From Minisyncoccia bacterium (GTDB taxonomy: Bacteria > Patescibacteriota > Minisyncoccia > UBA6257 > 2-01-FULL-56-20): a stretch of DNA of 64,000 bases. Below, piece by piece: positions 3,195-17,773 of the stretch (position 1 is the stretch's first letter; every line of letters starts with the position of its first letter). The stretch lies in assembly GCA_050015515.1 (NCBI GenBank), contig JBEKBG010000002.1:18777-82776 (forward strand), in the 5' to 3' direction. A model generated the notes under the pieces. That model ran no database searches, was not told where the DNA came from, and saw only the letters and a program-made list of their open reading frames with translations. Position numbers and translations under genes: made by a program.

Positions 3195-3662
3195 ATGCGC
3201 AAAAAGCGAATATATAAAAAGTTCCATCAGCCTGACGTCGTGTACGGCCGCGTTGAGCTTGGCCGCTTCATCAACTATGTGATGAAAGACGGAAAGAAAT
3301 CCACCGCCGAGAAGCTGGTCTATTCCGCATTCGATAAAATAAAGGAGGCGACGAAAGAGGAGCCGATGGTGGTCTTCGAACGCGCTCTCGAGAATACAAT
3401 GCCATTGCTGGAGGTCGCGTCCAAGCGCGTTGGCGGCGCGAACTATCAGGTGCCGCGCGAGGTTCGCCCCGAGCGCCGCTTCGTGCTCGCGCTTCGCTGG
3501 ATCATCGGCGCCGCCCGCGCCAAGAAGGGCAAAGGCATGGCCGACAAGTTGGCGGAAGAGATCATTGCCGCGTCCAAGAACGAAGGCAACGCGATCAAGA
3601 AGAAGCTCGACATGCACCGCATGGCGGAAGCCAACCGCGCGTTTGCGCACTTCGCGAGATAA
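3195..3662 (+). CDS. rpsG: 30S ribosomal protein S7
   Basis: 155-aa ORF with typical S7 sequence (…[15 protein letters not shown]…LALRWII…). Confidence 0.95.
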
Positions 3663-3748
3663 TCATTTGTAATCGCAAAAAGAGAAAAATGGCCCGGCGT
3701 CGGGCTGTTTTTTTAAGATAGTTTTAATCGGCATTTTGTTACGGTGGG

Positions 3749-4174
3749 TTGATGTATGATCCGGCGTTTCAATTTGAGCGTGAAAAAATAGAAAATGAAG
3801 CGCGAGAAACTTATAACAAAATCGGGCATGTTTGGTCGCCCGTATTGAATGGCCATATTTCATTTAAGAGTGCCGGTTTTCGCCATTTGATGTGGAAAGG
3901 AGGAAAACGTCGGCCGTATACACAGCAAATAAAACGACTCTCATTGATCGCATATGCAGCTAAAATAGTTTCCGATCCGAAAGCGCGGGTCATTGAGCGA
4001 GAAGAAATGCGTGATTCACTGATCAAGCGTGCCGGGGTGAAAATCATAATTAAGGCCCCGGTTCGTTTTTGGGCCTTTCATGCAAATATAGAAAGAAAAA
4101 ACATACGAGTAATTGTGAGGCAGGTCAGTAATGGGAGTAAGCACTTTTTCAGCATTTTTGAGGAAGAGAAATAA
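3749..4174 (+). CDS. hypothetical protein, paralog of 10553..10963 (conserved HLMxKxGKRR … FW … IVLRQ … KHFFSI)
   Basis: 141-aa basic protein; clear alignment to the ORF at 10553-10963; inserted between rpsG and fusA. Confidence 0.6.
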   Translation: MMYDPAFQFEREKIENEARETYNKIGHVWSPVLNGHISFKSAGFRHLMWKGGKRRPYTQQIKRLSLIAYAAKIVSDPKARVIEREEMRDSLIKRAGVKIIIKAPVRFWAFHANIERKNIRVIVRQVSNGSKHFFSIFEEEK

Positions 4175-4256
4175 AAAAGGACTCGATAGCGAGTTCTTCT
4201 TTATATGCCTGTGGCAACTATACCGCCTCGCCAAGGAGCTTCAGCTCCTGCAGGCA
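4173..4256 (-). ncRNA. candidate convergent small RNA abutting the 3' end of 3749..4174
   Basis: Minus-strand promoter (-35 TTGACT at 4291-4286, -10 GATAAT around 4266-4261), about 80-nt structured transcript, terminator hairpin ACTCG-CUAU-CGAGU plus U-run whose T-run overlaps the TAA of the plus gene. Confidence 0.35.
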
Positions 4257-4320
4257 CATCATTATCATACACTTAGACGATAATCAGTCAAATAACTTTT
4301 AATGATTTTTTAATGTTTTG

Positions 4321-4360
4321 AAAAAATAATAAAAATGCCGCCCGTGGTGCCGGGCGGCAT
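4321..4360 (-). terminator. rho-independent terminator of gene 4393..4707
   Basis: ATGCCGCCCG-TGGTG-CCGGGCGGCAT hairpin with A-run on plus strand (T-run on minus). Confidence 0.6.
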
Positions 4361-4392
4361 TGGGTGCTGTTGTAATGAAGCCGCGACGAATG

Positions 4393-4707
4393 CTAATTCG
4401 ACGCCGCTGCCACTATCTGGCGGACAAGTGAACCTTCGGCGCTCGTCAGTAGATGGACGAGCGGATTTTCGGGATCCTTGAGGTCGTTCTCTGTCCACTC
4501 GGTCGTGTCGACGACCACCTTCCGCATGGCGTCGTCCGCGAATTCCGGGTCGTCGAATATCGCCGGGGTCGAGATGAGGATCCTGTATCGACCGACTTCG
4601 CCGCGGGTAATGAATCCGCAATATTTGCCTGCGTTGTCGGGGCCCGCATGGGTCGCAATGATGTCATCGGGGTTTCCCGCTATCTCGTACGCTGTGAGTC
4701 TTGTCAT
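4393..4707 (-). CDS. hypothetical protein
   Basis: Start MTRLTAYEIAGNPDD with GGAGG 8 nt upstream (one of few SD-bearing genes); 104 aa. Confidence 0.5.
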   Translation of the reverse strand: MTRLTAYEIAGNPDDIIATHAGPDNAGKYCGFITRGEVGRYRILISTPAIFDDPEFADDAMRKVVVDTTEWTENDLKDPENPLVHLLTSAEGSLVRQIVAAASN

Positions 4708-4817
4708 GACATATTCCTCCCTGCTGCCCCCCACGATATCACATTTGCAGCCAATAAAAAACTGTGATAATCTAATCAACGTCGCCCAGGCGACTTTTAT
4801 ATTAATTTAATCTATCT

Positions 4818-6935
4818 ATGCCCCGACAATATTCCATCGAGAAGACCCGCAACATCGGCATCATCGCGCACATCGATGCGGGTAAGACGACCGTCAGTGA
4901 ACGCGTGCTTTTTTATACCGGCGTTTCGCACAAGATCGGCGAGGTGCACACGGGCGACACGGTGATGGATTGGATGGAGCAGGAACGCGAGCGCGGCATC
5001 ACGATCACGAGCGCCGCGACGACCGCGTTCTGGACGCCCACGTATCACGCCGCGGGTCCCGACCATAAAAACTTCGAGCACCGCATCAACCTGATCGACA
5101 CTCCGGGCCACATTGACTTTACCGTGGAGGTAAAGCGCTCGCTGCGCGTTTTGGACGGCGCGGTCGTCGTATTCGACGGCGTCGCCGGCGTGGAGCCGCA
5201 GTCGGAGACCAACTGGCGCTACGCGGACGATTACAAAGTGCCGCGCATCTGCTTTATCAACAAGCTCGACCGCGCCGGCGCGGACTTTGAAAAGAGCTTC
5301 AAGTCCATCCTTGACCGCCTCACCCAGAACGCGATCCCGATCCAGCTGCCGATCGGCACCGAGGCGAACTTTAGCGCGGTCGTGAACCTGCTCGAGAACA
5401 AGGCGTATACCTTCGAAGGGGAGCACGGCGAGAATATCGTAGAGATCCCGATCCCGGCAGATATGATGGAGACGGTGGCAAAGCATCGCCATGATCTCAT
5501 CGAAAAGATCGCGGAGAACGACGACATCGTGATGGCGAATTACTTGGACGGAAAAGAGATCTCACTCGAGGACCTTCGCAAGACGTTACGCAAAGGCGTC
5601 ATCGCAAACACGATCGTGCCGGTCATGTGTGGTTCGGCGCTCAAGAACAAAGGCGTGCAGTTTATGTTGGATGCCGTCATCGAATACCTGCCGTCGCCGG
5701 CGGACATGCCGCCGATCATGGCGCATGACGAAAAGACGGGCGAAATTGTGCCGGTCAAGCTTACCGACGAAGAGCACTTTGCGGGTTTGGCCTTCAAGAT
5801 CGCAACGGATCCGTTCGTAGGAAACCTGGCGTTCTTCCGCGTCTATGCCGGCGTCCTTAAGAAAGGCTCGTATGTGTATAACTCCACGAAGGGTCAGCAG
5901 GAGCGCGTCAGCCGTATCGTCCGCATGCACGCGAACGACCGCGAAGAAGTGGACGAGGTCTACTCCGGCGAGATCGCCGCAATCGTGGGCTTAAAGGGCA
6001 CCACCACCGGCGACACATTGTGCGATCCGGATCACGCCGTCATTTTGGAAAAGATCACGTTCCCGGAGCCGGTCATCGGGTTGCGCATCGAACCGAAGAC
6101 AAAAGCGGACCAGGAGAAGATGGGCATTGCATTGCATCGCTTGGCGGAAGAAGATCCGACGTTCCGTGTGGAAGGCGATAACGAGACGGGGGAGACGATC
6201 ATCTCCGGCATGGGCGAATTGCACTTGGACATCATCGTGGACCGCATGAAGCGCGAGTTCAACGTCGGCGCAAACGTGGGTCGGCCGCAGGTGGCATACC
6301 GCGAAACGATCACGGCGGAAGCCGAGGGCGAAGGCAAGTACATCAAGCAATCCGGTGGACGCGGTCAGTACGGTCACGTTAAGTTGCGCGTAAAGCCGGG
6401 AGAAAAAGGCTCGGGATTCGTGTTCGTTGACGCAATCAAAGGCGGTTCCATTCCGAAAGAATTCATCAACCCAACAGAGAAAGGCGTCAAAGAAGCGATC
6501 GATAAAGGTATTGTCGCCGGCTATCACATGGTAGACGTGGAGGTAGAGCTCTACGATGGTTCGTTCCACGAGGTGGACTCTTCCGAAGCGTCATTCAAGA
6601 TCGCGGGTTCCATGGCATTCCAGGACGCAGCCAAGAAAGCCAAGCCGGTCATTCTCGAACCGATCATGAAGATCCAGGTCATCGTGCCGGACAACTTCAT
6701 GGGCGAGGTCACGGGCAACGTCAGCGGCAAGCGCGGCGCCATCGAATCGATCGACGATCGTCCGGGTCAGCTCAAGGTGGTGAATGCCAAAGTGCCGTTG
6801 TCCGAATTGTTTGGTTACGCTACCGAGCTTCGCTCGATGTCACAGGGGCGTGGTTCATTTACGATGGAATTTGATCACTACGAGGCGGCACCGCGCAATG
6901 TGACGGAGCAGATTATTGAGGGGAAGAAGCGCTAA
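4818..6935 (+). CDS. fusA: elongation factor G
   Basis: [17 protein letters not shown], full EF-G domain order; 705 aa; about 12-aa insertion after switch region. Confidence 0.97.
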
Positions 6936-7059
6936 AACAATATAGGGCACATGCTTTTGAAAGGACGGCGTTCCAGCCTGCTGGCTGGCCGCCTTGGCTC
7001 TCGCCGCCTTCGCGGCTCCGAGACACCTTTCAAAAGCATGTGCCCTATGTTGTTTTAGC
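6931..7059. repeat. long palindromic element, family 1 (34-bp arms plus conserved about 60-nt core)
   Basis: Arms GCTAAAACAATATAGGGCACATGCTTTTGAAAGG / reverse complement (1 G-T mismatch); 5' arm contains the fusA stop codon; core ACGGCGTTCCAGCCTGCTGGCTGGCCGCCTTGGCTCTCGCCGCCTTCGCGGCTCCGAGAC. Confidence 0.8.
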
Positions 7060-7151
7060 GACCCGTTTCAGAGTGATCTGCGGCACGGTGTTCTTGGGCC
7101 GGAGATGAAGGTAGTCTAGCGAATTAATAAGTGCTAACATGTTAAATATAG

Positions 7152-7883
7152 ATGAAAAAAACACCCTCAAAAATCAAGGTTATTGATCTATTTTGTGGTA
7201 TAGGAGGCTGGATCGGGGGGACGCGACCGGACAACGCTCGCTTCGTTCCGCCACCGGTGGATGACATGAAGCGTTCTCTTTCGGATCTCGAGAGTTTTAT
7301 GTATGCGGAAGATGCGACGCTGACCGTCATTAAGGCGGGTCTTTTGCATGCGCAATTTGAGACCATCCATCCGTTCCTTGATGGTAATGGAAGAACGGGA
7401 CGGATGCTCATCACATTCTATTTGTGGAAAGAAGGGTTTTTGGAAAAGCCTGTTTTGTTTTTATCCTCATATTTTAAAGAACATCAAAAGGTCTATTACG
7501 AAAAGCTTTTGTGCTATCACGAGGGAAAGGTTTCTGAGTGGATTGAATTCTTTTTGGATGGGGTTATTGAGATCGCCAATGAAGCAATCGATATTGTTGG
7601 GAAAATAACGAAGCTTAGAGAAGGGGATACGGAAAAGGTTCAAGGCCTTGGCAAGCGCGCATCGGAAAGTGCAATGAAGGTATTGCCCAAGCTTTATGGC
7701 CAACCGATCGTCAACGTGAGTCTTGTTCAGCGGTGGACCGGTTTTACCCGTGCCGGAGCACAAACCGTCATTGATCGGTTTATCGAGCTTGGCATTCTCT
7801 CCAAGAAGGATAAGGACAAGAAATATGGGCAGTCTTATATTTATAAGAAATACGTGGGCTTATTTTCTGATAGCGCCGCGTAG
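7152..7883 (+). CDS. Fic/DOC family protein (HPFxDGNGR motif) with C-terminal wHTH-like region
   Basis: AQFETIHPFLDGNGRTGRMLITFYL matches the Fic active-site motif HxFx(D/E)GNGRxxR; short N-terminal region suggests possible 5' truncation. Confidence 0.65.
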   Translation: MKKTPSKIKVIDLFCGIGGWIGGTRPDNARFVPPPVDDMKRSLSDLESFMYAEDATLTVIKAGLLHAQFETIHPFLDGNGRTGRMLITFYLWKEGFLEKPVLFLSSYFKEHQKVYYEKLLCYHEGKVSEWIEFFLDGVIEIANEAIDIVGKITKLREGDTEKVQGLGKRASESAMKVLPKLYGQPIVNVSLVQRWTGFTRAGAQTVIDRFIELGILSKKDKDKKYGQSYIYKKYVGLFSDSAA

Positions 7884-7933
7884 TTTGCGTTGGAGCGCAG
7901 CGAGGACTCCTGTGCGGGCGAGGGCGCTTCGCG

Positions 7934-7998
7934 ACCGTGCCGAAATCCAACCCTTCACGGGGAAGATGCTTCTTTATCTCAACTGCCGCGATTGCGGC
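7934..7998 (+). promoter_or_regulatory. partial duplicate of SAM-I riboswitch 3' half plus terminator hairpin
   Basis: GACCGTGCCGAAATCCAACCCTTCACGGGGAAGATGCTTCTTTATCTCAACTGCCGCGATTGCGGCATTTTT is about 90 percent identical to 9318-9372 in the complete riboswitch. Confidence 0.45.
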
Positions 7999-8090
7999 AT
8001 TTTTAGTTCCTTTCTTTGGGGGTATCGTTGTCACTATCCCTGCGGCGATCGTGGGGATCATTTTAAGATTAAAACCTCATTAAAAGAGTT

Positions 8091-8119
8091 TTGACTTTGG
8101 TACTGGGTGGGCGGACAAT
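8091..8119 (+). promoter_or_regulatory. promoter TTGACT-N17-GACAAT, -10 ends 7 nt before ATG 8126 (leaderless)
   Basis: TTGACT 8091-8096; the same AAGTTTTGACTTTGG promoter module recurs at 10441 and 17742. Confidence 0.45.
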
Positions 8120-8125
8120 GATGAT

Positions 8126-8980
8126 ATGGAAAAGAAAAAAAGAGAACAGAATACTCATCCGACGATCTTTGAAGAGAAAGAGGTTCGAAGAACCTGGCAT
8201 GATGAAAAGTGGTATTTCGTTATAGCAGACGTGGTGCAGATTCTTACCGATTCGAAAGATGTTCAGGGGTATATTAAGGATATGAGACGGCGAGATCCGG
8301 AGCTATCCCAAGGGTGGGGGCAAATTGCCACCCCCCTTGGGATTGAGACCGCTGGAGGAAAGCAAAAAATGAATTGTGCTAACTTGGAAGGCATCTTTCG
8401 TATTATTCAATCCATTCCTTCCCCAAAGGCGGAGCCATTTAAGCGCTGGCTCGCCAAGGTCGGCAAGGAAAGGATCGAGGAAATCGCAGACCCCGAATTG
8501 GCGGTAACGCGGACTAAAGAGATTTACGACAAAAAAGGATATCCAAAAGATTGGGTTGATAAGCGCATGCGAGGCATTGCCGTCCGAAATACGCTTACCG
8601 ACGAGTGGAAATCGCGGGGAGCGTCGATGAGCTTTGAGTTTGCGATTTTAACCGACGAGATTTACAAGGCGGCATTTGATAAGACCGCGAAAGAATATAT
8701 GAAGCACAAAGGGTTGGATAAAAAAGCGGGTGATAATTTGCGCGACCATATGGGAGACATTGAATTGATTTTGACGATGCTTGGAGAAGCGACGACGACC
8801 AAGCTCAGCACGGAAAAAGATTCGCATGGATTGGAAGCGTTAAAGAATGATGCGCAAATTGGGGGAGGCGTCGCCGGCAGGACTCGAAAAGATATCGAAC
8901 GGCAAACGGGCAAAAAGGTAATTTCAAATGAGAATTTTAAAAGCCGGAAGCTTTTGAAAGGCAAGGAAATTCGCAAGTAA
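8126..8980 (+). CDS. Bro-N domain protein / phage antirepressor-like
   Basis: FEEKEVRRTWHDEKWYFVIADVVQILTDSKD fits the Bro-N (KilA-N-like) pattern F..E.R....DGE.WF.A.DV..LG; 284 aa. Confidence 0.55.
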   Translation: MEKKKREQNTHPTIFEEKEVRRTWHDEKWYFVIADVVQILTDSKDVQGYIKDMRRRDPELSQGWGQIATPLGIETAGGKQKMNCANLEGIFRIIQSIPSPKAEPFKRWLAKVGKERIEEIADPELAVTRTKEIYDKKGYPKDWVDKRMRGIAVRNTLTDEWKSRGASMSFEFAILTDEIYKAAFDKTAKEYMKHKGLDKKAGDNLRDHMGDIELILTMLGEATTTKLSTEKDSHGLEALKNDAQIGGGVAGRTRKDIERQTGKKVISNENFKSRKLLKGKEIRK

Positions 8981-8981
8981 T

Positions 8982-9251
8982 ATGTCCCAGAAAACCAGGA
9001 TCAAAAAGAATTTAGCGCTGTCGGCAGATTTCAACGCGTATATTTTGAGAAATCCGAAAGTGATGGATAAATTACCCAGGAAGGTCTGTATCGTTTTTGA
9101 AGACAAAAAGGACCAAATTTTTTCGCGGGCAAACTTGAACACGGCAAAAGATATTGCGAATAGCGAGAAATGTTTCGTTGCGAGTAAGTCTGGGTCTCGC
9201 TGGTCTTTGCGTCCGCTCGCCGTATGCTATAATCATCTTACAACCGAATAG
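8982..9251 (+). CDS. hypothetical small protein
   Basis: 89-aa ORF immediately after the Bro-N gene; no recognisable motif. Confidence 0.25.
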   Translation: MSQKTRIKKNLALSADFNAYILRNPKVMDKLPRKVCIVFEDKKDQIFSRANLNTAKDIANSEKCFVASKSGSRWSLRPLAVCYNHLTTE

Positions 9252-9397
9252 CCCATCAAGAGAGTGGAGATGCTAAGGGATCTGGCCCGATGCTCCGCCC
9301 GCAACCGATCGACGATTCGACACGGTGCGAAATCCAACCCTTCACGGGGAAGATGCTTCTTTTAGATCAACTGCCGTGTAGGCGGTTGTTTTTTTGC
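9252..9397 (+). promoter_or_regulatory. SAM-I (S-box) riboswitch with intrinsic terminator, upstream of metK
   Basis: CCATCAAGAGAGTGGAG..GGGATCTGGCCCGATG..CCGCCCGCAACC..GGTGCGAAATCC..GGGGAAGATGC matches S-box conserved blocks (ATCAAGAGAGG, GGGAYTGGCCCGATGA, GCAACC, GGTGC.AATTCC, GAAGATG); terminator CAACTGCC-GTGTA-GGCGGTTG plus T7. Confidence 0.8.
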
Positions 9398-9455
9398 TCT
9401 TTTACAACTTGGGTCGAAAAGCTGGGTTACCAATTAATTAATCAATCAAACTATT

Positions 9456-10409
9456 ATGATAAAAACTGCGGAGTTTGTTTCGCCTCGGCATCCGGATAAA
9501 TTGTGCGACCTCATTGCGGATTCACTGCTCGATGCGTATCTGGCGGGGGATCCAAAGAGCCGCGTGGCGGCGGAGGTGATGGGTGGCCATGGGCACGTCA
9601 CGATCTCGGGGGAAGTGACGAGCGCGGCGTCGGTGGATATTCCAATTGTCGTGCGTTCCGTGCTGGGCTATGATGCGGCGGTGCATGCGTATCTTGTGCG
9701 GCAGAGTCCGGAGATCGCGCAGGGCGTGGATACGGGCGGCGCGGGAGATCAGGGCATTATGATCGGCTATGCCACGCGGGAGACGCCGTCGTTCCTACCG
9801 TTGGAATATGTGTTGGCGCGGGAGCTGTGCCGGAAGTTGTATGCCGTGTATCCGTATGACGGGAAGACGCAGGTAACGGTGGATGGTGATCGCGTGACAT
9901 GCGTCGTCGCAAGCTTTCAGAACGCTCCATCTGCCGCGCTTGAGGCGCTTGTGCGCGCATCCATAGTGGCGGACGAGTATCTGGTGAATCCCGCGGGCGA
10001 ATGGTCGCTCGGCGGCTTCGATGCGGATTCGGGGATCTCCGGGCGCAAGATCGTGATCGATAATTACGGGCCGGAGATCGGCGTGGGCGGCGGATCGTTC
10101 TCGGGCAAGGATCTCACCAAAGTGGATCGGTCGGGCGCATACATCGCGCGGCGCATCGCGGTGGATTACCTGGCGCGATTTTCGTCCGCGCGGGCGGTGC
10201 GTGTAAAGCTCGCGTACGCCATTGGCAAGCCACAGCCCGTCATGGCCGTGGCGGAATTAAGCGAGGGTTCCGGCGGTGTTCGCGTTGTGCCCGTTTCTGA
10301 TTACGACCTTACTCCTTCCGGCATCGCCACGCTTTTGAAGTTCTCTTCCGTGCGCTGGGCCGACACCGCCGCGTGGGGACACTTTGGGAGGGAGTTCAGC
10401 TGGGGATAG
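9456..10409 (+). CDS. metK: S-adenosylmethionine synthetase (short form, 317 aa)
   Basis: HPDK near N-terminus, GAGDQG, GGGSFSGKD..KVDRSGAY, GHFGR motifs. Confidence 0.85.
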   Translation: MIKTAEFVSPRHPDKLCDLIADSLLDAYLAGDPKSRVAAEVMGGHGHVTISGEVTSAASVDIPIVVRSVLGYDAAVHAYLVRQSPEIAQGVDTGGAGDQGIMIGYATRETPSFLPLEYVLARELCRKLYAVYPYDGKTQVTVDGDRVTCVVASFQNAPSAALEALVRASIVADEYLVNPAGEWSLGGFDADSGISGRKIVIDNYGPEIGVGGGSFSGKDLTKVDRSGAYIARRIAVDYLARFSSARAVRVKLAYAIGKPQPVMAVAELSEGSGGVRVVPVSDYDLTPSGIATLLKFSSVRWADTAAWGHFGREFSWG

Positions 10410-10450
10410 TGCCAGCTACTGTCGGAGATTAAAAAAATATTAAAAAAGTT

Positions 10451-10479
10451 TTGACTTTGGCGTTGAATTGCTTAGAATA
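10451..10479 (+). promoter_or_regulatory. consensus promoter TTGACT-N17-TAGAAT for sRNA 10486..10570
   Basis: TTGACT 10451-10456, TAGAAT 10474-10479. Confidence 0.55.
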
Positions 10480-10485
10480 GAAACA

Positions 10486-10570
10486 TGCTCGTAGGGCGTC
10501 GGCAGCTCCTGCCCAATCGGCTCACGCTGGTAGCGAGCATATCAAATAACCGTCACATGGCGGTTTTTTG
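10486..10570 (+). ncRNA. candidate convergent small RNA overlapping the 3' end of 10553..10963
   Basis: About 85-nt transcript with nested stems (ATGCTCG…CGAGCAT), terminator hairpin AACCG-TCACATGG-CGGTT plus TTTTTT (10565-10570); overlaps the last 18 nt of the minus-strand gene. Confidence 0.35.
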
Positions 10571-10963
10571 ATTCTTTGGTTTTGTATCATAAATACTGAA
10601 GAAATGTTTTTCTTTGCCTTCGATTTGCCTTAAGACGATCGTGATCGTGGCATCGCCATATGTCTTGGTCAGTTTCCAGAAATCGGCGTGCGGTTTCTTT
10701 ATCACCGCCATGTCGTGCCGTTTTGAGAAATGGACAGTTTCTCCTTCCCCATGAGAAATTTTTACCTCTTGGCTTTCAATAATTTCTTTCGCATAAGGCA
10801 GGAGACGAAGCCTTCTCGCTTGCTCTCGCAGTGAACGCCGCTTCCCATTTTTCCGCATAAGATGTTGGATTCCGGCATTGGTAAAAGCAACATAGTCGTT
10901 CAGCGCCGAACACCAAACGCGGCCGACATTTTTATAAGAATCTCCTATGTTTTTATCCTCCAT
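10553..10963 (-). CDS. hypothetical protein, paralog of 3749..4174
   Basis: 136-aa basic protein sharing VW..LN..F..AG..HLM.K.GKRR…FW…IVLRQ…KHFFSI with the first copy. Confidence 0.6.
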   Translation of the reverse strand: MEDKNIGDSYKNVGRVWCSALNDYVAFTNAGIQHLMRKNGKRRSLREQARRLRLLPYAKEIIESQEVKISHGEGETVHFSKRHDMAVIKKPHADFWKLTKTYGDATITIVLRQIEGKEKHFFSIYDTKPKNQKTAM

Positions 10964-11028
10964 TCGGCCACGATAGCAGGAAGGGGATTAAGAGAATCTT
11001 AAAAGCGTTATAATAAATACACACATCC

Positions 11029-11496
11029 ATGCACCTCTCCTATATCCTTATCCCGCTTGTTACGATCCTCGTCGCTTTTGTCGGCGGCCGGCTGACGGTG
11101 GCGTCGGTCAAGACGTGGTACGTTGGGTTGCGCAAGCCGTCGTGGACGCCGCCGGGCGCCGTGATCGGTACGGTGTGGACGGTGCTTTATATCCTCGCCG
11201 CGCTATCGGCGCTTATCGTTTGGAATCTTCCTGATGGCGCTTCGGTGCCGGCGATGATTGCCGTGCTCTTTTATTTGAACGCGGCGGTGAATGTTTTCTG
11301 GAGCTATGTGTTCTTTTACCTCCACAAGATGGGGCCGGCGATTTGGGTGTGCCTGTTCCTGGATATCACGATCATCCTGTTGATTCAGTTCATCGCGCCG
11401 ATTTCGCCGCTCGCCGCATGGCTTTTGGTTCCGTACGCGGCCTGGGTGACCTTTGCCTCGTATCTTAACTATCGGGTGTGGGAGATGAATCGGTAG
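11029..11496 (+). CDS. tspO: TspO/MBR family tryptophan-rich sensory protein
   Basis: WYVGLRKPSWTPPGAVIGTVWTVLYIL…LVPYAAWVTFASYLN; five TM helices; 155 aa. Confidence 0.8.
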   Translation: MHLSYILIPLVTILVAFVGGRLTVASVKTWYVGLRKPSWTPPGAVIGTVWTVLYILAALSALIVWNLPDGASVPAMIAVLFYLNAAVNVFWSYVFFYLHKMGPAIWVCLFLDITIILLIQFIAPISPLAAWLLVPYAAWVTFASYLNYRVWEMNR

Positions 11497-11707
11497 GCAT
11501 TTGATGTATTAAAGAAAGAAAAGCGCCGCAATGTCCATTTTACTTATCGAATTGCGGGGCAAGGACGATCAGGGTCTTCAATGACAATGATTTTTATCCC
11601 CAGTTTTGGCCGCCTTTTCCACAGCTTATTCACTTTGTTGGGGTTTTAAGGCGTTTTTTAGCGCTTTTAGGGCTTGACGAGATTTTTACACGGCGTATAT
11701 TTGTAAA

Positions 11708-12329
11708 CAGTAGTTTGAAATTGTTGGATGCGACCAAGAGAAATTCCGAAAGGAATTGTCACGGTTAGGTTCTTACCAAAAGAACAAAACTGTGACCGGA
11801 TCGAAAACATGGAACATGCAAGCGTTCAACCGTCTGACGGATGGAACGTCGAAGTATGATTCAAAGGATCGATCGGGACCTATTGGTCGAACAAAAAACA
11901 GGAAAGCGTGTAGTTCGCTAAAAGCTTCGGCTTAAAGCTGACGAAACGCAAGGTAAGCGGACAGTTCGGGTAACCGGACGAGGAAAGTCGAGTTCTGCAG
12001 GTTAAACCCCTGAGGAACAACGAATCCGCGGAAGATCTTTCCGTTCATCGCGCTGCGGCCCATGGCCACGCGCATCGAGCGAAAAGGATCTTTCCTTTCC
12101 ACCCTTCTGCCTTTGGGGTAGCTGAGTAACCCAAAATTTGATGGCGTTTACGCCATCGGGTTCAGAACGAAAGTTCTGTGTGCGGGAGATTCCTGTTTTT
12201 CCAACTTAAACTCAGGAGTACTTTGAGTGGCAGAAGCTTTGCTTCTTTCGAGAAGCAGATGCTTCTCCACTCAACGTATGACACCCCGGCCGGAGAGCGC
12301 ATTCATGCTCTCCGGCCACTCCTTTTTTT
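11708..12329 (+). ncRNA. ORF-free structured transcript of unknown identity (promoter at 11671-11700, terminator at 12288-12329)
   Basis: Promoter TTGACG-N16-TATATT; about 620 nt with no ORF longer than 68 aa; multiple GNRA/UUCG-capped hairpins (AAATTCC-GAAA-GGAATT, AAGC-UUCG-GCUU); terminator GGCCGGAGAGC-GCATTCAT-GCTCTCCGGCC followed by T7. Confidence 0.3.
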
Positions 12330-12337
12330 ATGGGGAT

Positions 12338-12366
12338 TTGACACGGCCGCCGGTTTCCCATACAAT
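12338..12366 (+). promoter_or_regulatory. tuf promoter TTGACA-N17-TACAAT with about 130-nt leader
   Basis: TTGACA 12338-12343, TACAAT 12361-12366; leader contains hairpin ACAGCT-CTTGA-AGCTGT-TTTTC. Confidence 0.55.
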
Positions 12367-12505
12367 TGCTTGGTAAATCCCTGAAGGGAAAAAAGAAAGT
12401 CACTTAGGTCGATTGGCTATAGATTTTCACAGCTCTTGAAGCTGTTTTTCTTCGGAATAGGGACGCTCACGCAGTATAAAAAATAAACATTAATTTTTAA
12501 AAAAT

Positions 12506-13705
12506 ATGGCAGAAAAAGAAAAGTTCGATCGGTCCAAGCCGCACCTTAACGTAGGTACGATTGGTCACGTCGATCATGGCAAGACCACGTTGACCGCGGC
12601 CATCACTCACGTGTTGTTCATGAAGGGCTGGACAAAAAAAGAAGAGAACGTAAATCAGATCGACAACGCTCCAGAAGAGAAGGCGCGTGGTATCACTATC
12701 GCGTTGCATCACTCGGAATATAATTCGGAGAAGCGCCACTACGCGCACGTGGATGCTCCGGGACACGCAGACTATATTAAGAACATGATCACCGGTGCCG
12801 CCCAGATGGACGGCGCGGTGCTCGTCGTCGCCGCGACCGACGGCCCGATGCCGCAGACGCGCGAGCACATCTTGCTCGCTCACCAGGTCGGTGTGCCGAA
12901 CATCATCGTGTTCCTCAATAAAGTTGATATGGTGGATGATCCGGAATTGATCGATCTCGTGGAATCCGAAGTTCGTGAGCTTCTCACGAAAAATGGATTT
13001 GACGGCGAACATGCGCCGGTCATCCGCGGTTCCGCATTGAAGGCATTGAACGCAACCTCGGCCGATTCTCCGGATGCCAAGCCGATCCTCGATCTCGTGA
13101 AGGCGATGGATGATTACTTCCCAGATCCGGTTCGCGAACTCGACAAGCCGTTTCTTATGCCGATCGAAGACATATTCTCGATTGAAGGCCGTGGCACGGT
13201 CGTCACGGGACGCATTGAGCGCGGCAAGGTGAAGGTGAACGAGGAAGTTGAGGTCGTTGGCCTTAAGCCGACCCAGAAGACCGTCGTCACCGGAATCGAA
13301 ATGTTCAACAAGAGTTTGGACGAAGGCCAGGCAGGCGATAACGCCGGTTTGCTCCTCCGCGGCCTCAAGAAAGAGGACGTGGAGCGCGGACAGGTTTTGG
13401 CCAAGCCGGGCAGCGTGACCCCGCACGCGGAGTTCGAAGGCGAGATCTATGTGCTTTCGAAAGAAGAGGGCGGCCGCCACTCTCCGTTCTTTAAGGGCTA
13501 CAAGCCGCAGTTCTACATCCGCACGACCGACGTGACGGGCGAGGTTACCCTTCCGGAAGGAATGGAAATGGTCATGCCGGGTGATACCGTCAAGATTACC
13601 GTCAAGCTTATCACCCCGGTCGCTTTGGAAGACAAGATGCGTTTCGCCATCCGCGAGGGAGGCAAGACCGTTGGCGCCGGCGTCGTGACCAAAATAATTA
13701 AGTAA
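12506..13705 (+). CDS. tuf: elongation factor Tu
   Basis: [27 protein letters not shown]; 399 aa; AT-rich upstream with no SD. Confidence 0.97.
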
Positions 13706-13816: not shown

Positions 13817-13911
13817 GTTTTTAAATTTTGTCACGACGCCGCGCGTCTCCGGTTCTCTTCGGGAGGTGTTTTTGTTCGAGTGTTGAGGAGATACTCGGGC
13901 CTGAGCGACAT

Positions 13912-14316
13912 ATGTGGTATTATAGATTCATGCAAATAATTGGAATTATTGCAGTCGTCCTTCTTGTTGGGATCTTCATTGTATTTATAAAGCAAAGTAC
14001 TAATAACTATTCCAAAATTTCTTTGGTTGGTGCCTTGATCGTATCTTTGGGGTTGATAGCTTCCGGATCTGGTGCATCAAACGTCATTCCGACAAGTTTG
14101 GCATTCGTATTTTTTGCGATCTTAATCATTTCCTTATTGGCTATGGTTATATTCGCCGTCGTGGGTGCAATAACGGATCCAAGAATTTCAAAGGAGGGGA
14201 CGTTGCCTATTATTTGGAATAAGATCATTCCCATAGGAATAGCAGCGGCCCTCTTACTTGTTATAGGACTCTTTCTTTATTTGATATTTATCGTTGGAAC
14301 GGCATTCAGGGGATAG
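13912..14316 (+). CDS. hypothetical multi-TM membrane protein
   Basis: MWYYRFMQIIGIIAVVLLVGIFIVFI… four hydrophobic segments; start chosen at internal ATG 13912. Confidence 0.4.
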   Translation: MWYYRFMQIIGIIAVVLLVGIFIVFIKQSTNNYSKISLVGALIVSLGLIASGSGASNVIPTSLAFVFFAILIISLLAMVIFAVVGAITDPRISKEGTLPIIWNKIIPIGIAAALLLVIGLFLYLIFIVGTAFRG

Positions 14317-14353
14317 CTTGAGTGATTTGAACTTGGTCCAATGCTCCGCATAA

Positions 14354-14379
14354 ACAAAAAACCCGTTGCCGGGTTTTTT
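14354..14379. terminator. bidirectional intrinsic terminator
   Basis: AAAAAAA-CCCG-TTGC-CGGG-TTTTTT. Confidence 0.6.
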
Positions 14380-14721
14380 GCGGATCCAAACATAATGCTG
14401 CGTGGTCCGAGGTGACACCATAACCATGATAACAATCCCAAAATATTCGTCAAAACATTTTTAATCTTTATTTAATGTTTTTATTACCGTTGCGCGGGGG
14501 TGCGAGGACTTGCGCCTCGTGGATCCATAGCGTCACCTCGGACCCAGCACTATGCCACCCCCGCTGCAGTCTATAAAATAGTGCATTAAAACTGTCTAAA
14601 GTCATCTGCGGCTTCACTTTTCGTCACGATGTCGTGTACCTCTATAGAATGCTTTTAAGGTTGATTTTAAAATGGGTTCAAGATAGCTTATAGGTAGTTC
14701 TACGAAACGAAAAGGAGTTAT

Positions 14722-17698: not shown

Positions 17699-17745
17699 CT
17701 GTGGCCATAGGCATAGCGAGTTATTAAAAGATCATTAAAAAGTTT

Positions 17746-17773
17746 TTGACTTTATTTTTCTAACTTCTAAAAT
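17746..17773 (+). promoter_or_regulatory. promoter TTGACT-N16-TAAAAT, leaderless start at 17780
   Basis: -10 ends 17773, ATG 17780. Confidence 0.5.

Follow-up and report, generated by a model that had tools for sequence, protein, structure and literature searches.

We analyzed a 64,000-nt stretch of DNA from a Minisyncoccia bacterium (Patescibacteriota; contig JBEKBG010000002.1, positions 18,777 to 82,776), hereafter called the window, which carries two copies of a two-gene module, A and B. In each of them, a gene for a small basic protein is met at its 3' end by a convergently transcribed gene for a small RNA (sRNA). An initial annotation, made from the letters of the sequence, had reported for module B a 136-aa open reading frame (ORF) on the minus strand faced by a plus-strand sRNA at 10486-10570. 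Both genes were recovered, the RNA gene with slightly wider limits, and module B comprises the following features:

10425-10450, plus strand: AT-rich UP-like element (…ATATTAAAAAAGTTT), 5' of the sRNA B promoter
10451-10478, plus strand: predicted sRNA B promoter (-35 hexamer TTGACT at 10451-10456, 16-nt spacer, -10 hexamer TAGAAT at 10473-10478)
About 10482-10571, plus strand: sRNA B (covariance-model match, 67 bits, E 1e-17)
10485-10492 paired with 10533-10540, plus strand: P1, the 8-bp closing stem of sRNA B
10494-10514, plus strand: hairpin 1 of sRNA B
10516-10531, plus strand: hairpin 2 of sRNA B
Between P1 and the terminator, plus strand: short, A-rich linker of sRNA B (AUCAAAUA)
10548-10565 (hairpin) and 10564-10569 (T6), plus strand: sRNA B terminator, from terminator prediction and fold
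10553-10963, minus strand: gene B, encoding a 136-aa basic LPD3-like protein (isoelectric point, pI, 9.8), stop codon at 10553-10555
10970-11004, minus strand: putative gene B promoter (TTTTAAGATTCTCTTAAT-N11-TATCGT; -10-like hexamer at 10975-10970, 6 nt before the ATG)

The sRNA B promoter, which had been called a perfect TTGACT-N17-TAGAAT, does possess these two hexamers, but its spacer measures 16 rather than 17 nt and the hexamers match the consensus at 10 of 12 positions, so that it falls short of perfect; judged by its hexamers, it is probably a strong promoter. These hexamers are kept across orthologous loci while the spacer has diverged, and the upstream element is conserved, as (C)ATTAAAAAATCATTAAA, 5' of every sRNA copy. 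The sRNA ends, as proposed, in a hairpin and T6 lying inside the end of gene B, where the terminator overlaps the last 19 nt (instead of 18) of the coding sequence (CDS), stop codon included. Read on the minus strand, this hairpin precedes UUAUUUG, and we thus predict a bidirectional terminator common to gene B and sRNA B. The C-terminal tail of protein B, KNQKTAM, arises simply because the terminator and T-run are translated. It is kept as KNQKTA(S/M/T) in the B-type homologues P0001-P0009, being encoded by the reverse complement of the terminator stem and U-run (10553-10573), and residues 131-136 are predicted to be disordered (predicted local distance difference test, pLDDT, <50 in an AlphaFold 2, AF2, model). 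This tail is a by-product of gene overlap and not a functional peptide motif. At the other end of the gene, the -10-like hexamer lies only 6 nt before the ATG, and the gene B mRNA is therefore probably leaderless.

Module A has the same layout in mirror image:

3752-4174, plus strand: gene A, paralogue of gene B (140 aa from the ATG at 3752, or 141 aa from a TTG at 3749; pI 10.3)
4171-4260, minus strand: sRNA A (covariance-model match, 57.4 bits, E 8.5e-15; three-way junction and terminator), convergent with gene A
4177-4198, both strands: shared terminator of sRNA A, bidirectional, predicted on both strands
4264-4310, minus strand: putative sRNA A promoter and upstream UP-like element (-35 hexamer TTGACT at 4291-4286, 16-nt spacer, -10 hexamer TATGAT at 4269-4264)

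Gene A (3749-4174 with the TTG start) encodes, as annotated, a second copy of the same protein family: the two proteins are 34% identical over 119 aa (tblastn, E 5e-23), and gene A is the sole paralogue of gene B in the window. The two RNAs were also correctly described as similar in length, although both measure about 88-90 nt by covariance-model match instead of about 85 nt. Their predicted folds reach -38.3 kcal/mol (z -3.8) for sRNA B and -36.5 kcal/mol (z -4.4) for sRNA A.

Both sRNAs belong to one family of structured RNAs, whose consensus reads AUGCCYG, GGGGC-loop-GCCCC, UAAYCGGC-loop-GCUGGUAG, CRGGCAU, AUCAAA and terminator. It describes a three-way junction, in which P1 (AUGCCYG/CRGGCAU) encloses hairpin 1 (GGGGC/GCCCC) and hairpin 2 (CGGC/GCUG). 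The three helices were recovered by RNAalifold, and all three stems show compensatory changes. In the model-based alignment, 94.7% of the cells are paired and 11 of the 16 pairs have changed on both sides, with a covariation score of 0.31 as compared with 0.15 in shuffles (0/500) and at most 0.08 in slid controls. A covariance model of the kind suggested in the initial annotation for finding further copies (R1) was run on the window with filters off, and returned exactly two RNAs, one per paralogous gene, at 67 and 57 bits, the next match scoring 11.8 bits. It had also been proposed that both RNAs share an inner stem-loop motif. The string AGCUCCU is indeed present in both, but in sRNA A it makes up the 3' side of the stem of hairpin 1, whereas in sRNA B, where hairpin 1 is extended, it is located within the apical portion, and most RNAs of the family have a 4-nt loop at hairpin 1 and lack the string. 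Given these non-homologous positions and its absence from most members, AGCUCCU was rejected as a family feature: what sRNAs A and B have in common is the three-way-junction architecture.

The conservation of this RNA is extreme. Between orthologues, the RNA core is 93.5-96.8% identical, as against 80-82% for tuf DNA and 66-79% for the DNA of the partner gene in the same genomes. Similarly, homologues of protein B (56-85% identity) have diverged, as has the promoter spacer, but the RNA region downstream of them has hardly changed. The RNA is not coding, since the conserved AUG of P1 opens ORFs of anything between 4 and 58 codons, in no conserved frame. We thus have a genuine RNA gene, whose structured, non-coding product is kept by very strong purifying selection. 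Searches of known RNAs returned nothing that resembles it: Rfam 15 contains no relevant family at the gathering threshold over the whole window, nor at E<=10 over both modules and three related loci; ARAGORN detected three ordinary tRNAs only in the window; and comparison of the sRNA with 16S rRNA and with the rest of the window, for similarity or complementarity, gave random matches of at most 12 nt only. In several copies the 7-bp closing stem is followed by A/G-(C/U)(C/U)-A, which is reminiscent of a tRNA acceptor end, although this likeness is unproven. With no Rfam family and nothing found in literature searches, neither this RNA family nor its association with a divergent LPD3 family appears to have been described.

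Modules were gathered from homologues of protein B, from homologues of protein A and from GTDB genomes of Minisyncoccia, Paceibacterota, Parcubacteria and Saccharibacteria. This yielded 26 intact family genes, whose proteins are as little as about 30% identical, in 21 non-redundant loci and the window (window A and B; L001, L004, L006, L012, L014, L016 with two, L018-L022, L023 with two, L024, L025, L026, L028, L029, L030 and L031). All 26 have a convergent RNA gene directly 3' of the CDS, at -17 to +32 nt from the stop codon, and every one of these RNA genes is preceded by a TTGAC/TAnnAT promoter of its own; the RNA of L031 is longer and diverged. The arrangement is therefore found at the other copies of the family, including second copies within the same genome (L016, L023 and the window). 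The extent to which RNA gene and CDS overlap varies among modules (about -17 to +32 nt), and because both genes share a bidirectional terminator, the layout alone does not imply antisense control. Modules occur in unrelated settings: the fusA-tuf gap, the uvrB-uvrA gap, or beside rpsO, xseA, uvrC or sodA. Two modules per genome are frequent, and several small genomes hold two divergent modules, a situation typical of toxin-antitoxin (TA) families.

The two partners also diverge together: the distances between RNAs correlate with those between proteins (Mantel r 0.67, 0/5000 permutations). A DNA-pattern scan of a metagenome collection for the B-type RNA alone recovered two loci only, both with the gene. 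Among the 26 genes recovered, no intact protein gene lacks the RNA, and the sole decayed (frameshifted) gene, in L027, has no recognizable RNA. RNA genes without a protein gene of their own do occur beside complete modules, each scoring 38-39 bits:

L012 4810-4893, minus strand: RNA-only copy adjoining a complete module
L023 4834-4918, plus strand: RNA-only copy, in tandem upstream of the protein gene, with a promoter of the 'protein-gene' type (TTTTAAT-N10-TATAAT)
L030 3654-3724, minus strand: RNA-only copy in tandem with the module's own RNA, without a clear terminator hairpin

At least two of these three have their own promoters. That RNA-only but no protein-only copies exist is what a protective role of the RNA would predict. 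The RNA gene is obligately linked to the protein gene, and, with linkage at every intact homologue recovered and correlated divergence, we are highly confident that protein and RNA form a functional unit, as the initial annotation had argued from the two copies in the window.

The protein family is large (1068 clusters at 50% identity, E<=1e-3), and almost all of its members are stand-alone proteins of 110-160 aa with a pI of 9.6-11.7. H34, R43 and G31 are invariant in the family, while K38, R51, W96, R112 and H120 are nearly so. The AF2 model of protein B (pLDDT 84) consists of N-terminal helices followed by a six-stranded antiparallel meander, a predicted soluble alpha+beta fold and not a small hydrophobic peptide. 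In Pfam, the two window proteins match LPD3 (PF18798) at 19.2 and 17.1 bits, below the 27-bit gathering threshold. Despite these sub-threshold scores, 17 of 41 family members match PF18798 at E<=0.01 (best 1e-6), and several homologues carry precomputed PF18798 matches; we thus consider the family, from profile similarity, to be a divergent relative of LPD3. LPD3 is a domain of polyvalent proteins of phages and conjugative elements, where it occurs beside PBECR ribonuclease (RNase) and RelA/SpoT domains (Iyer et al. 2017, PMC5512222). Family proteins differ from LPD3 proper in being stand-alone, chromosomal and found in the candidate phyla radiation (CPR). We know of no RNA partner described for LPD3.

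Structural modeling suggests a weak resemblance to RNase toxins of the RelE/colicin D/CdiA type. Foldseek comparison of the protein with the PDB and BFVD yielded nothing significant, and the protein profile, run against PDB sequences, gave only spurious RpoN matches. No match for the protein was found in PADLOC, NCBIfam or PHROGs. As for ToxN, CptN and TenpN, neither Pfam, PADLOC nor NCBIfam produced a match, and the top fold-search matches are not ToxN-like. No relatives of the protein were detected in IMG/VR, and a phage origin was rejected on this ground.

Expression signals differ between the two partners. Nearly all family genes are preceded by TTTTAGATTnTTTTAAT-N~11-TATnGT-N6-ATG, which looks like a weak promoter with transcription starting at or next to the ATG, and hence like a signal for leaderless mRNA. 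RNA promoters are near-consensus and preceded by ATTAAAAAATCATTAAA, whereas protein promoters are weak or atypical by sequence. The combination ATTAAA-N(1-14)-TTGAC occurs at five sites in the window, against 0.58 expected:

4287-4303, minus strand
8079-8095, plus strand
10439-10455, plus strand
14449-14465, minus strand
17734-17750, plus strand

Besides the two sRNA genes, these sites mark at least two genes for proteins, namely Bro-N (8126) and an ORF of 92 aa (17780). Because two of the five precede protein genes, the motif looks like a general strong-promoter feature of the organism, in which a UP element typical of the lineage is fused to the -35 hexamer. The site at 14449-14465 belongs to a further candidate small RNA (14350-14465, minus strand), in which the UP-like element and TTGACG-N17-TATCAT (about 14449-14420) would drive a transcript of about 70 nt ending in the terminator AAAACCCGgcaaCGGGUUUUUU (about 14375-14350), convergent with a 162-aa membrane ORF (13828-14316). 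This candidate is unrelated to the three-way-junction RNA (R1 gives only 10 bits, on the opposite strand).

Module B lies in a variable island between fusA and tuf, which contains SoFic, PDC-S13/Bro-N, DUF5647, metK, module B and TspO:

6935-12506: fusA-tuf gap
7152-7883: SoFic (matching profile positions 146-359 of 361 only, and possibly truncated at its N terminus)
8126-8980: PDC-S13/Bro-N
8982-9251: DUF5647
9456-10409: short metK
11029-11496: TspO

In relatives (L004, L006), the same gap holds PemK or the Pycsar effector PycTM beside the orthologous module, and other modules adjoin PBECR1, AAA_14/DUF4143 ATPases, an integrase or a reverse transcriptase. Modules are thus located in variable islands rich in defense and TA genes. 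Module A is inserted within the str operon, in the rpsG-fusA gap (3662-4818), together with a 128-aa minus-strand ORF (4393-4779) that has a strong terminator at 4361-4334. In L001, a PBECR1-domain gene (5132-5524; a predicted RNase of the Barnase-EndoU-ColicinE5/D-RelE class, BECR) lies directly downstream of a P0002-type module, and hhalign of the family against this neighbor gave no profile similarity (probability 0.4%). Just upstream of a P0002-type family gene, L011 contains two matches to the skipping-rope RNA (RF02924) at 252-333 and 361-460, both on the minus strand: one is near-threshold (33.9 bits, the gathering threshold being 36.7) and the second is weaker.

We propose that modules A and B are copies of a two-gene cassette conserved across Patescibacteria (CPR). 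Its first component would be a small, strongly basic, divergent LPD3 protein, expressed from a weak promoter and probably from a leaderless mRNA; its second would be a non-coding RNA of about 88 nt, driven by a near-consensus promoter with a UP-like element and folding into a three-way junction followed by an intrinsic terminator. The protein may be a harmful effector targeting nucleic acids, possibly an RNase of the RelE/colicin D/CdiA type, which the abundant structured RNA would neutralize, most probably by direct binding, each paralogous protein having its own cognate RNA variant. We consider the case evenly poised for such a TA-like module with an RNA antitoxin, type III-like in acting through direct binding. 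An RNA-antitoxin module is the best fit because of the obligate pairing, the multiple divergent cognate pairs per small genome and the location in defense/TA islands, and also because a strong RNA promoter is set against a weak protein promoter, the protein is basic with hints of an RNase toxin, and copies are found with the RNA only but never with the protein only. Trans-antisense action on the 5' end of the mRNA was rejected, as cognate pairs of RNA core and mRNA 5' end pair no better than non-cognate ones (-24.5 versus -23.9 kcal/mol). This lack of cognate-specific pairing, together with a conserved junction lying outside the overlap, leads us to favor direct RNA-protein binding.

Several points weigh against this proposal. 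The layout is unlike that of every described type III system, with a single-copy RNA devoid of repeats and transcribed convergently. Expression, the ends of the RNA and the start of the mRNA without a leader are only predicted from sequence. Furthermore, RNAs of one orthologous group have changed much less than their proteins, and less even than tuf DNA. Such conservation goes beyond simple RNA-protein co-evolution and suggests a further constraint: the RNA might, for example, mimic a conserved cellular RNA or base-pair with it. Along these lines, the stand-alone LPD3 protein may be a BECR-like RNase held inactive by its cognate three-way-junction RNA, which would mimic the cellular RNA substrate of the enzyme. 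This would represent a new class of RNA antitoxin or RNA decoy, apparently restricted to CPR/Patescibacteria, but we regard this specific version as speculative and on the unlikely side.

Antisense control similar to that of type I systems would also account for part of the data. The sRNA would pair with the 3' end of the mRNA through about 30-35 nt of perfect complementarity, corresponding to the shared terminator, and would cause duplex-dependent degradation or block expression, as in txpA/RatA and bsrG/SR4, the junction serving for stability only. Convergent genes with overlapping 3' ends are conserved in all modules, the strong promoter belongs to the RNA gene and the weak one to the protein gene, and the terminator is symmetric (A-run, hairpin, U-run), so that both transcripts should carry complementary hairpins. 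However, the complementarity between RNA and mRNA is limited to the shared bidirectional terminator (about 19-35 nt), and such sharing is common for tightly packed convergent pairs. The part of the RNA which is conserved and covaries is the non-overlapping junction, which antisense action leaves unexplained; tandem or upstream RNA-only copies have no overlapping mRNA; and the protein is not a small hydrophobic peptide. We thus judge antisense control to be rather improbable. Shared bidirectional terminators are in fact so common in compact genomes that an independent sRNA and an unrelated gene might be mere neighbors, thrown together by the compactness of CPR genomes. Pairing at 26 of 26 intact genes, in unrelated contexts and at both window paralogues, with partners that co-diverge, makes such a coincidence very improbable, and on this sequence evidence it is effectively refuted.

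The partners might instead form a ribonucleoprotein that is not toxic, with the protein as an RNA-binding, chaperone or processing partner, and the complex or the stabilized sRNA regulating, or defending against, other targets; the variable loops could then be recognition or guide segments. Obligate linkage, co-divergence of the partners and a very basic protein are all compatible with this possibility, and the near invariance of the whole RNA, loops included, within an orthologous group whose protein drifts would fit an external conserved target. Yet the loops are short, highly variable between paralogous groups and without complementarity to the rRNA of the window. Divergent multicopy modules in tiny genomes and in variable defense/TA islands fit selfish or defense modules better, and RNA-only copies exist while protein-only copies do not. 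This makes a non-toxic complex, too, an unlikely explanation. Finally, the 'sRNA' might be a leaderless mRNA for a micro-protein (e.g., a tiny protein antitoxin) starting at the P1 AUG, which is conserved 6-8 nt after the -10 hexamer; in module B, an ORF of 28 codons spans the RNA. We rejected a small ORF in view of the variable ORF length and frame reported above. In addition, the peptide is kept only over its first five or so residues, as dictated by P1 and hairpin 1, differences in loop length shift the frame, and substitutions are compensatory for base pairing. A micro-protein is, in our opinion, hardly credible.

CPR bacteria have mostly escaped cultivation, and hardly any of their non-coding RNAs are known. 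Our analysis adds a structured RNA family which is supported by covariation, absent from Rfam and obligately tied to a protein family of about 1,000 clusters. Whatever the function of the module, the data also point to leaderless mRNAs and to a UP-like element as a characteristic of promoters in these organisms. If the RNA is an antitoxin, the module would provide a first function for the LPD3 domain and a handle on the LPD3 domains of phage polyvalent proteins. The modules would then also supply compact cognate RNA-protein pairs, directly testable in E. coli or in vitro.

Among known systems, Bacillus type I TA modules (txpA/RatA, bsrG/SR4) resemble the present ones in convergent transcription, overlapping 3' ends and a strong RNA promoter. 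They differ in the extent of the overlap, which is 75-120 nt, whereas here it is about 30 nt, consists of the shared terminator only and leaves the conserved part of the RNA outside. The proteins differ as well: the toxins of type I systems are usually hydrophobic membrane peptides of <60 aa, whereas our family proteins are basic, soluble and 117-146 aa long. Type I toxins need not, however, be hydrophobic peptides, as exemplified by SymE/SymR and RalR/RalA (PMC4041452).

Type III TA systems (ToxIN, CptIN, TenpIN) are similar in that an effector protein is encoded beside a dedicated structured RNA, in cognate pairs, in multiple copies and in defense settings, and in that we propose neutralization by direct RNA-protein binding. 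In contrast, the RNA described here is a single three-way-junction unit, convergent and with its own promoter, whereas type III RNAs are arrays of 34-40 nt tandem repeats located upstream in the same operon; no tandem repeats of this kind were detected in 10300-11100 or within the RNA gene of module A. The protein is also dissimilar to ToxN, CptN and TenpN, with no sign of RNA processing by it. With no repeats, another layout and an unrelated protein family, the module falls outside type III in its current definition. Another parallel is AbiF (Abi_2)/RCd22 of Clostridioides difficile, called type III-like, in which the non-repetitive abiF RNA motif binds and neutralizes a toxic protein (bioRxiv 10.1101/2025.04.15.648962). 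Abi_2 (Pfam) and abiF (Rfam) have no match in our module, and RNA motif, placement and strand all differ, but both systems link a protein gene to a conserved, structured RNA that has no repeats. Should our proposal be correct, the modules would widen the small set of RNA-controlled protein toxins and add to it a new genetic architecture, in which the RNA antitoxin is single-copy, convergent and shares its terminator with the toxin gene.
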